Below are positions 9,496 through 10,074 of a stretch of 64,000 nucleotides of DNA, one piece after another (the first letter of the stretch is position 1; each line of letters starts with the position of its first letter). Source of the DNA: Blastocatellia bacterium. GTDB taxonomy: Bacteria > Acidobacteriota > Blastocatellia > UBA7656. The notes below the pieces were generated by a model. It did no database searches, was not told where the DNA came from, and saw only the letters and a program-made list of their open reading frames with translations. Made by a program: the position numbers and the translations under genes. The stretch is from the NCBI GenBank assembly GCA_963765495.1, contig CAVXWP010000002.1, positions 224,001 through 288,000 on the forward strand. The letters run 5' to 3'.

Positions 9496-10074
9496 TTATA
9501 TGGTACAACAATTTTCAGGGCCACAATCTCCATCCAGAGTCACCGAGCTAAAATGGCAAACGCCTTTTGTGTCGCCGCAGCACTGGCCATTTTGCTCGTC
9601 AGCCTTGCCTCCCGGACATGGAAGCGACTTCACACTATGATTGCTTATGCACAGATGTTTACAACTCACTTTCATCGTGCATCCCGTGGCAGCCTCAGCC
9701 GCCGTAGGCGATATGATCGTAATGACCGAAAGACCGCCGACCACTGCGAGCTTTCGCATCAAATCTCGACGCGATGAGCTGATATTTGCATCCAGAGGCG
9801 GATTCACCCGATCCCTGAGAAGCCGGGCCTTCCCCAGTCGGCGCAACGCAACCCAGACCACTTCATCGTCTACCGGAACACGAAGCTCGCTCCTGATGCG
9901 AGCCGCGATCTCCGGCACGCTCCTCTTCCCGTCGCAACTATGCCAGATCATAGCAGCCGTTTCGTTGAGGCAGTGAGCCTTATCACGATCAAGATCGTAC
10001 ACCAATAATTCGTCTTCATACTCTTCTATCACAAGGCCATCTTCTCTAGCGTGAGGAACCAACTTTGTTTTCAT
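9496..10074 (-). CDS. PqqD/RRE domain fused to twin-arginine-like leader and Cys-rich C-terminal peptide
   Basis: RRE: DELLVYDLDRDKAHCLNETAAMIWHSCDG..S..EIA; then SRRDLMRKLAVVGGLSVITIISPTAAEAA; then 63 aa with 10 Cys; ATG 10074 has a well-spaced GGAG. Confidence 0.85.
   Translation of the reverse strand: MKTKLVPHAREDGLVIEEYEDELLVYDLDRDKAHCLNETAAMIWHSCDGKRSVPEIAARIRSELRVPVDDEVVWVALRRLGKARLLRDRVNPPLDANISSSRRDLMRKLAVVGGLSVITIISPTAAEAATGCTMKVSCKHLCISNHSVKSLPCPGGKADEQNGQCCGDTKGVCHFSSVTLDGDCGPENCCTI

Follow-up and report, generated by a model that had tools for sequence, protein, structure and literature searches.

A Large Acidobacterial Protein Family with a Fused Recognition Element, Signal-Like Leader and Cysteine-Rich Core: Candidate Self-Contained RiPP-Like Precursors

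Introduction

In the biology of the RiPPs (peptides made by ribosomes and modified after translation), the recognition element is assumed to be carried on an enzyme or to be a free adaptor, and the precursor to be a short peptide. The locus described here raises the question of what is made by a gene in which the two are joined. The gene lies in a 64,000-nucleotide stretch (the window) of the genome of a Blastocatellia bacterium (Acidobacteriota; GenBank assembly GCA_963765495.1, contig CAVXWP010000002.1, positions 224,001 to 288,000 of the forward strand), between genes for an HprK-like kinase and a nucleotidyltransferase (NTase). It encodes in a single polypeptide a PqqD-type RiPP recognition element (RRE), a leader with an arginine pair (RR) and an AxA site, and a tail rich in cysteine; the adaptor is here part of the precursor, and the leader resembles a general export signal. 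An interpretation made from the letters and open reading frames alone (the sequence-only reading) had proposed that the RRE binds its own leader in cis and masks export by the twin-arginine translocation (Tat) route until modification is complete, and that cleavage then releases a mini-protein with five disulfides. The analysis of the family, its conservation, predicted fold and gene neighbourhood reported here leads us to give about an even chance to the view that the gene encodes a self-contained RiPP-like precursor, in which an RRE, a signal-like leader and a hypervariable disulfide-rich core are combined and whose core would be modified and exported.

Results and Discussion

The Fusion Gene and Its Family

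The RRE-leader-core gene is a minus-strand coding sequence (9499-10074, stop codon at 9496-9498) with a product of 192 amino acids (aa), and a GGAG sequence sits 9 nt 5′ of its ATG at 10074. It is no chance open reading frame (ORF), because 129 homologues at E ≤ 1e-3 were obtained among the 563 candidates (105-336 aa) of a word-indexed homologue search, and because a profile search returned a large family. The profile, built from 115 homologues, was run over 1.84 billion cluster representatives, each standing for one 50%-identity cluster, and gave 10,570 representatives at E ≤ 1e-3, 6,099 at E ≤ 1e-10 and 2,300 at E ≤ 1e-30. Among the 150 family matches listed, all of which had the same three-part layout, nearly all were 157-250 aa long and aligned end to end.

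The N-terminal part matched the PqqD domain (PF05402) with 31.9 bits over residues 23-68, against a cut-off of 23.4, and this domain was matched at E ≤ 1 by all 115 family members. Residues 93-128, PLDANISSSRRDLMRKLAVVGGLSVITIISPTAAEA, contain the arginine pair, a hydrophobic stretch and the AxA site, and the tail (residues 129-192, ATGCTMKV...CCTI) contains 10 Cys, two CC pairs among them. The layout that the sequence-only reading had described in one chain (RRE, RR leader, AxA site and 10-Cys core with two CC pairs) is thus borne out.

A full-length AlphaFold2 (AF2) model, calculated with a 115-row alignment, had a mean pLDDT (predicted local distance difference test) of 85.3. Its RRE showed a winged-helix fold (strands 14-18, 22-27 and 32-37, helices 38-46, 53-64 and 70-82) with pLDDT of about 95. 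The solved structures closest to the RRE were lasso-peptide RREs crystallised with leaders: Foldseek gave 5v1u_B (E 6e-4) and 6jx3_B (template modelling score 0.79), and VIA gave 5v1v_A (Z 9.3, root-mean-square deviation 2.2, 86 residues aligned) and 6jx3_B (Z 9.1).

The hosts of the family are mostly Blastocatellia/Pyrinomonadaceae. For a set of 73 related loci, taken from one-genome-per-species contigs of genomes other than that of the window, almost all bins were labelled Blastocatellia, Pyrinomonadaceae or Acidobacteriota, and a few Gemmatimonadetes, Methylomirabilis, Nitrospinota, Binatia or Vicinamibacteria. Of 201 evenly sampled Acidobacteriota genomes, 21 had a fusion-family match at E ≤ 1e-10, and six of these matches were weak (five over the PqqD part only, and one, in genome G077, over model positions 66-125 only). 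Three copies are present in the genome of the window: the window copy, a 159-aa paralogue on contig 7 and a 161-aa paralogue on contig 1. The search for stand-alone short RRE relatives gave only two proteins below 105 aa, probably fragments, so that members of this clade are normally fused. A few members are tail-less or Cys-poor (L072:5001-5470, L076:5001-5470, L051 and L082:1671-2681). Two members without a Cys tail, from one genome, end in a Pro/Gly-rich sequence (...GRGRR), another stops just past the AxA region, and the member of genome G199 carries a long polar tail with no more than two Cys. Open frames of 380-462 aa that appeared to be kinase-RRE-precursor triple fusions were rejected; the frames in loci L082 and L083 are high-G+C artefacts, and the real genes are of ordinary length.

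Conservation of the Leader and Variability of the Core

Conservation was determined from an alignment of 374 distinct sequences of 140-280 aa (search matches, locus translations and tandem copies). The RRE was strongly conserved, with Y26, D27, L36 and G49 each at 100%. In the leader, R102 (100%) and R103 (99%) were flanked by S/T/N101 (94%) and D/E/Q104 (81%) and followed by hydrophobic residues at 105-106, R/K107 (83%) and K/R108 (75%). Further downstream, V/I117 (100%), S/T119 (97%) and I120 (79%) marked the middle of the leader, and P123 (99%), A128 (82%), S/T130 (92%) and C132 (82%) marked the putative cleavage region. The consensus around the AxA site was APTAAQA, then A-(S/T)-C, and the conserved motif VTSIVAPTAAQA-A-(S/T)-C places a Pro...AxA signal-peptidase pattern just ahead of the first Cys. 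The identity of random pairs was 0.51 in the head and 0.33 in the tail, the latter figure being inflated by the aligned Cys. The prediction that the RRE and leader would be conserved and the Cys core hypervariable was therefore confirmed, and the two outcomes named beforehand as contrary to it, a core as conserved as the RRE and an RR that is not conserved, were not seen.

Two further residues of the RRE domain, C35 (94%) and C47 (99%), are highly conserved cysteines, which we take to be unusual for PqqD proteins.

Tail length ranged from 23 to 102 aa, with a median of 37 aa, and 17% of the tail residues were Cys. The number of Cys was even and non-zero in 358 of the 374 tails, odd in 13 and zero in three; exactly six Cys were present in 218, and the spacing C-C-CC-C-C in 155. 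This spacing, found in many tails of the family, is that of the knottins of spiders and cone snails. Weak matches to knottin families at E ≤ 1 were obtained with the 115 members (Conotoxin 23, Conotoxin_I2 21, Omega-toxin 15, UPF0506 14, Toxin_29 11). The 27-residue, six-Cys tail of the contig-7 paralogue matched the spider inhibitor cystine knot (ICK) peptide 5fzw_A with E 5.6e-4, and all 17 of its PDB matches at E ≤ 10 were ICK/knottin peptides. The origin is here bacterial, and the likeness in sequence may be convergent, because it is carried mainly by the Cys spacing, and common descent is not shown. Most cores of the family have six Cys in a knottin-like pattern. The 10-Cys core of the window belongs to a sub-clade of proteins of about 190 aa with 8-10 Cys; its AF2 confidence was moderate (pLDDT 60-81), and a protein atlas search with residues 129-192 gave no usable match. 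The even Cys counts and the ICK spacing point to disulfides, and hence to an oxidising compartment.

The Leader as a Possible Export Signal

The sequence SRRDLMRK...SPTAAEA has the form S/T-R-R-x-hydrophobic-hydrophobic-K followed by a hydrophobic region and AxA. SRRDLMRK, a hydrophobic stretch containing Gly, Ser and Thr, a Pro and the AxA together have the look of a twin-arginine signal. For the C-terminal 94 residues the top-scoring family was TIGR01409 (TAT_signal_seq), though below its cut-off, and a formate-dehydrogenase Tat-region model matched 56 of the 115 members. With its start at residue 101, the motif follows the RRE and is not N-terminal. The genome encodes TatC (219 bits) and two S26 signal peptidases, on contig 5 and at 368 kb on contig 1, far from all three fusion copies. 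As judged from these features, "Tat-like" is a fair label for the leader; membership of the Tat class is not established and insertion by the general secretion (Sec) pathway is also possible, the Tat route being somewhat favoured over Sec.

Tat signals are bound by the proofreading chaperones TorD, DmsD and NapD until the cargo is mature. The motif, the moderately hydrophobic region and the AxA are alike in those signals and in the leader described here, and so is the idea of a chaperone binding the signal; here, in contrast, the signal is internal, behind a domain of 100 aa, the presumed chaperone is the cis-fused RRE, and the hidden Markov model (HMM) score falls short of the cut-off.

Predicted Docking of the Leader on the RRE

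In the full-length AF2 model the leader consisted of a helix (102-111, RRDLMRKLAV), a β-strand (117-121, SVITI) and a short helix (125-128), and a long transmembrane helix was absent. A model of the tail-less protein (residues 1-130, with an alignment of 88 rows trimmed alike from the loci) kept the strand 117-121, and the predicted template modelling score rose to 0.81; the pLDDT of the strand was about 83-88 across both models. Since a DSSP strand needs a hydrogen-bonded ladder, and the RRE sheet is the sole sheet left in residues 1-130, the model docks the leader on the RRE.

Mean-field direct coupling analysis (DCA) was carried out on residues 1-131 of the 374 sequences (effective number 278), with pairs at least 5 residues apart. 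Pairs between RRE and leader ranked high: D31-A125 (rank 7), A83-V117 (8), E71-S101 (10), H34-T119 (11), A40-A110 (18), R84-L105 (19) and R78-R107 (23). Strand β3 or helix α3 was involved in 7 of the 11 RRE-leader pairs within the top 40, and β3/α3 is, to judge also by the titles of the matched entries, the cleft where RREs hold leaders. Six inter-region pairs scored above 1.3, against permutation means of 0.42 when leaders were shuffled among all sequences and 0.58 when they were shuffled within 55%-identity clusters (12 permutations each), the second control being weak in that one within-clade cluster held 308 sequences. A complex prediction with the RRE (residues 1-95) and the leader (96-131) as separate chains scored 0.03 against a mark of 0.32, and weighs neither way.

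The docking of the leader on the RRE β-sheet that the sequence-only reading had anticipated was thus found as a predicted strand with only the RRE sheet as partner, and the couplings agree with it. Fold and couplings do not tell binding in cis from binding between two molecules. The sequence-only reading is supported in part, by the layout, the conserved RR and the predicted docking; cis binding, the masking of export, the Tat route, cleavage and the five disulfides are its inferred part.

The Kinase-Fusion-Nucleotidyltransferase Cassette

The enzyme genes on both sides of the fusion gene are listed in Table 1. The kinase had a single family match, NCBIfam TIGR04352 (HprK_rel_A; E 9.9e-12, 44.5 bits), far under the cut-off of 200, and no match in Pfam; protein atlas clusters named it "HPr kinase family protein" (score 0.98). 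The PqqD part likewise scored below its HPr-rel-A equivalog cut-off (TIGR04353, 13.4 against 35 bits). PDB sequence searches with the kinase and with the NTase gave no match at E ≤ 1 in either case.

Kinase, fusion and NTase genes were found in this order on one strand in 41 of the 73 loci. Within 5 kb, both enzymes were encoded in 42 loci, the NTase only in nine and the kinase only in three, so that at least one enzyme was present in 54; several enzyme-incomplete loci were cut by contig ends. In 51 loci, of which 42 also have the kinase and nine do not, the NTase gene lay downstream of the fusion gene and shared its strand. As to the paralogues, the copy on contig 7 has the full cassette and that on contig 1 an NTase gene 2.2 kb away and no kinase gene. 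In the 201-genome sample, the kinase was found at E ≤ 1e-15 in 17 genomes, 15 of which also had the fusion family, and the kinase was present wherever the fusion matched at E ≤ 1e-16 (15 genomes), related genomes not being independent of each other. The flanking kinase and NTase, which the sequence-only reading does not mention, tie the fusion gene to RiPP systems with phosphorylation and glycosylation.

In 13 of the 73 loci (L012, L024, L025, L030, L033, L050, L052, L057, L059, L061, L063, L064 and L071) between two and four complete fusion genes stood in tandem, as precursor genes do, with four in L071 and three in L063; each gene had its own RRE and leader, and the tails differed. Many of these arrays lie in loci without kinase or NTase, where they look like additional precursor genes that are served in trans.

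All three loci of the genome are embedded in polysaccharide clusters with genes for Wzy_C, a Wza-type exporter, glycosyltransferases, RmlA/RmlC, a deacetylase and an AsnB-type amidotransferase, and Wzy_C and Poly_export genes also adjoin both paralogous copies. Given this embedding, the cell surface or the matrix is the probable place of action of the product.

The cassette contained no dedicated peptidase and no radical SAM, lanthipeptide or other Cys-modifying enzyme. Neither an SpI-like or archaeal-type signal peptidase I nor an MsbA-like exporter was found among the genes scanned at window positions 268-30182, the search for an ABC pump covering the listed ORFs. A scan of positions 6800-12300 for promoters and terminators gave counts no higher than in shuffled sequences. 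A search of sequencing runs listed no RNA run that contains the sequence, and one DNA run, from a soil metagenome. Genes for giant proteins (about 1,000-1,900 aa) of the Peptidase_C25 (gingipain) family stood on the same strand beside the fusion gene or cassette in 13 of the 73 loci, at two of the three copies in the genome of the window and in genome G059; the ORFs scanned around the window copy included no Peptidase_C25 gene. These proteins may act as partners of the Cys-rich peptides, process them or be their targets.

Comparison with Known Systems

The closest known system is that of the linear polyphosphorylated peptides (LPP) of Bacillota (Popov et al. 2026; PMC13381572). LPP clusters lie inside capsule loci and encode a kinase, a discrete RRE, an uncharacterised NTP transferase and a signal-peptidase-like leader peptidase; the precursors, of 35-200 aa, have a conserved leader and variable C-termini, and several precursor genes may occur in one cluster. 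The HprK-like kinase polyphosphorylates Ser3 of the core, and the RRE presents the leader and its cleavage site to the signal-peptidase-I-like protease (PMC13381572). According to the same text, the final product has not been identified, and the role of the enzymes in polysaccharide loci is left open.

Common to both systems, at the level of protein type, are an HprK-like kinase, an RRE and an NTP transferase (LppK and LppN being the LPP enzymes) in a polysaccharide locus, a conserved leader with a highly variable C-terminal part, and the possible presence of several precursor genes. The modified Ser of LPP is near the N-terminus of the core, and in the acidobacterial family a Ser/Thr is present at +2 in 92% of the sequences; the LPP leader is cut by an enzyme of the signal peptidase I type, and the acidobacterial leader has an AxA site of that type. 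In LPP, however, the RRE is discrete and the precursor separate, whereas the acidobacterial RRE is fused to its precursor. The leaders also differ, that of LPP being YxxPxVLxHQxIxFETxxS and the acidobacterial one SRRxLxKK...VTSIVAPTAAQA, which is signal-peptide-like. A dedicated SpI-like peptidase and an MsbA-like pump belong to LPP, whereas neither was among the scanned genes of the acidobacterial cassette; the LPP hosts are Bacillota and those of the fusion Acidobacteriota, and the acidobacterial cores are Cys-rich. The words "Acidobacter", "twin-arginine" and "signal peptide" are absent from the text of PMC13381572.

In the lasso clusters of paeninodin and pseudomycoidin, as described in PMC8498205, an HPr-kinase homologue phosphorylates the C-terminal Ser, and hexoses are then added to the phosphate. 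These clusters have the same trio of HPr-kinase homologue, PqqD-type RRE (B1) and nucleotidyltransferase, and the RRE fold of the fusion is nearest to the B1 proteins TbiB1 and 6jx3_B; the lasso kinases target the C-terminal Ser, whereas only 16 of the 374 members of the acidobacterial family end in Ser. A lasso system was rejected for the cassette, which has no lasso cyclase or B2 protease; the Transglut_core3 matches of the genome, at 1270609 on contig 1 and 544915 on contig 2, are near no copy of the fusion. The asparagine synthase encoded at window positions 17925-19904 is complete in its glutaminase domain, and its gene has glycosyltransferase genes as neighbours. The contig 1 match, a lasso B2-like gene (L085, positions 1270609-1270902, 77 bits), lies with a distant NTP_transf_5 relative (1265255-1265944) about 50 kb from the contig-1 fusion, and this region may be a true lasso peptide cluster of the same genome.

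The DUF2282 RiPP precursors carry a general-secretion signal peptide and are paired with a DUF2063 RRE partner, and according to the passage on them in PMC12710340 no specific RRE-recognised motif was found. Their Sec signal is N-terminal, their RRE is a separate protein and their enzymes are others, whereas here the signal is internal and the RRE fused. In the literature searched, with subscription-only papers and the supplements of preprints and key papers lying outside it, no description of an RRE-precursor fusion or of a twin-arginine RiPP leader was found.

Proposed Pathway

We read the cassette as a variant of the kinase/RRE/NTase RiPP systems, the new parts being the cis-fused RRE and a signal-peptide-like leader that would double as a Tat- or Sec-type signal. 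In the pathway that we propose, the RRE would bind the VTSIV part of its own leader as an extra β-strand, as the models predict. Binding would keep the precursor in the cytoplasm, within reach of the HprK-like kinase and perhaps of the NTP_transf_5 enzyme; the most likely target of modification would be the conserved Ser/Thr two residues past the AxA site (Ser/Thr130), by analogy with the phosphorylation of Ser3 in LPP. The leader would then direct the core across the membrane via Tat or Sec, and a housekeeping signal peptidase I would cut after AEA/AQA, freeing a peptide of 64 aa (about 25-45 aa in most relatives), which would oxidise outside the cytoplasm to a disulfide-rich mini-protein, possibly with five disulfides in the case of the window core.

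In a more elaborate form of this pathway, which we consider rather improbable, the fused RRE would be a built-in Tat proofreading chaperone: it would clamp the hydrophobic core of its own twin-arginine signal until first the kinase and then the NTase have decorated the Ser/Thr at +2, the modification would release the signal, Tat would export the precursor, and signal peptidase would free the peptide. Soil Acidobacteria would then make thousands of different phospho- or glyco-decorated bacterial knottins, which could be anchored to or act in the exopolysaccharide matrix, or control the adjacent giant C25 proteases.

The family is very large, is found mostly in soil Acidobacteriota and probably makes secreted, modified mini-proteins. 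If the self-contained precursor reading holds, the order PqqD, RR, AxA, Cys would give a simple pattern with which to mine genomes for secreted, disulfide-rich peptides of bacteria, a large and untapped pool, the natural cis recognition could be copied in peptide engineering, and the tailoring of RiPPs by kinases and nucleotidyltransferases would be linked to general protein export. It would also give a lead on the role of such enzymes inside polysaccharide loci, which was left open for LPP (PMC13381572).

Several observations weigh against the self-contained precursor. Neither kinase nor NTase is encoded within 5 kb in 19 of the 73 loci, and a few members are without Cys tails (L072, L076, L051). 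TIGR01409 scored 13.7 bits with the whole protein and 14.8 with the C-terminal 94 aa, against a cut-off of 16.7, and matched only 42 of the 115 members at E ≤ 1 (best 5.1e-4); a signal peptide after a folded domain of 100 aa is, moreover, off the textbook arrangement. The invariant RR could be a recognition motif for the RRE or an enzyme instead of a Tat motif, because DCA couples its helix to helix α3 of the RRE. A C-terminal Ser, the target of lasso-type kinases, is rare, and the last residue is not conserved. The 10-Cys core of the window matched neither a knottin family in Pfam nor a solved chain in the PDB at E ≤ 10. As to the docking, the partner of strand 117-121 is deduced rather than observed, and the kinship of the 374 sequences behind the couplings is only partly controlled.

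Alternative Readings

The alternative that fares best, which we nevertheless regard as unlikely, is an uncleaved bitopic membrane protein with a cytoplasmic PqqD domain, a plain transmembrane anchor and a small periplasmic Cys tail, which would tether the kinase and NTase, or a separate substrate, to the polysaccharide machinery. The signal is indeed internal rather than N-terminal, the positive charges (RR, R/K107-108) ahead of a stretch of about 20 hydrophobic residues agree with an N-in/C-out anchor under the positive-inside rule, and each of the three copies of the genome is accompanied by genes for Wzy_C, a Wza-type exporter or glycosyltransferases. A plain anchor, however, requires no conserved sequence, yet VTSIVAPTAAQA-A-(S/T)-C is conserved and ends in Pro...AxA before the first Cys; AF2 gives a helix and then a strand, and no single transmembrane helix, and hypervariable tails, with tandem arrays in which the tails differ, are more in keeping with products than with a structural ectodomain.

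An improbable second alternative is a cytoplasmic RiPP precursor, in which the RR, hydrophobic stretch and AxA would be only a recognition sequence for the RRE, Cys, Ser or Thr residues of the core would carry modifications or the core would be a metal binder, and another protease, e.g., a Peptidase_C25 protein, would release it. Burial of the hydrophobic segment on the RRE in the AF2 model, the sub-threshold score of the Tat HMM, and the Peptidase_C25 genes on the same strand in 13 of the 73 loci and at two of the three copies of the genome are what it can account for. The even, non-zero Cys number in 358 of the 374 tails and a spacing like that of secreted knottins point instead to disulfides and hence to an oxidising compartment, and the cassette lacks a Cys-modifying enzyme; the C25 protein beside the contig-1 copy is itself probably extracytoplasmic, because it starts with a signal-peptide-like N-terminus.

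That the RRE serves a separately encoded peptide in trans, the C-terminal signal and Cys part being an unrelated fused module, is very doubtful: RREs normally act in trans and a weak likeness to the HPr-rel-A PqqD chaperones exists (TIGR04353 matched 65 of the 115 members at E ≤ 1, all below cut-off), yet when all ORFs from 70 aa upwards were clustered across the 73 loci, no conserved small ORF family appeared beside the fusion, only the two stand-alone relatives below 105 aa were found, and coupling and predicted docking join the RRE to its own leader.

Features of the Locus and Neighbouring Genes

The coordinates of the features discussed are collected in Table 1.

Table 1. Features of the fusion gene, its cassette and associated genes. 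Positions refer to the window unless a locus is named.
Feature	Position	Strand	Evidence
RRE-leader-core fusion, coding sequence, 192 aa	9499-10074	-	2,300 family representatives at E ≤ 1e-30
RRE (PqqD-type winged helix), residues 1-92	9799-10074	-	Pfam PqqD 31.9 bits; AF2 fold; structural matches
Twin-arginine-type motif SRRDLMRK, residues 101-108	9751-9774	-	Conservation in 374 sequences; TIGR01409 14.8 bits vs 16.7
Leader segment SVITI (family consensus VTSIV), residues 117-121, predicted β-strand	9712-9726	-	AF2; conservation; couplings
AEA, AxA site of signal peptidase I type, residues 126-128, Pro123 ahead	9691-9699	-	P123 99%; A128 82%
Putative core ATGC...CCTI, residues 129-192, 10 Cys	9499-9690	-	Conserved hydroxyl residue at +2: Thr130
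HprK-like P-loop kinase, 271 aa, same operon, 30 nt upstream of fusion	10105-10920	-	TIGR04352; atlas clusters
NTP_transf_5 nucleotidyltransferase, 372 aa, 41 nt downstream of fusion	8336-9454	-	PF14907, E 1.7e-26
401-aa protein, N-terminal Cys-rich motif FVCAECNALCC, possible accessory gene downstream of NTase	7033-8238	-	No Pfam/NCBIfam match
Wzy_C membrane protein (O-antigen ligase/polymerase-like), polysaccharide-locus marker	5701-6954	-	PF04932, E 5.6e-12
Peptidase_C25 protein, example	L078:4075-7362	-	
Peptidase_C25 protein, example	L079:1921-7668	+	
Peptidase_C25 protein, example	L021:1683-4934		
Peptidase_C25 protein, example	L046:3434-8014		
Family of about 430 aa, example	L056:5547-6836		
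Family of about 430 aa, example	L064:5512-6801		
Family of about 430 aa, candidate at the contig-7 copy	L079:10443-11759	-	

A homologue of the 401-aa protein was found inside the cassette in three of the 73 loci (L005, L035 and L060). In 14 of the 73 loci, especially at the arrays without enzyme genes, the fusion gene is directly followed, on the other strand, by a gene of a conserved family of about 430 aa without a Pfam match.

Genes for an extracytoplasmic function (ECF) sigma factor (SigK-like, E 2.2e-52; 3931-4686, plus strand) and an RskA-type anti-sigma factor (4745-5623, plus strand) adjoin the Wzy_C gene of the window on the opposite strand. A minus-strand gene at 3084-3698 encodes a 204-aa protein of the Rad52/Rad22 repair family (PF04098, E 5.8e-12), a family that is uncommon in bacterial chromosomes and often phage-derived. 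On the other side of the cassette, at 16909-21279 on the minus strand, genes were found for a polysaccharide deacetylase with DUF3473, the full-length AsnB-type asparagine synthase and a PMT_2-like membrane glycosyltransferase (25 bits, slightly short of its cut-off), a trio that presumably resembles exosortase-type exopolysaccharide loci.

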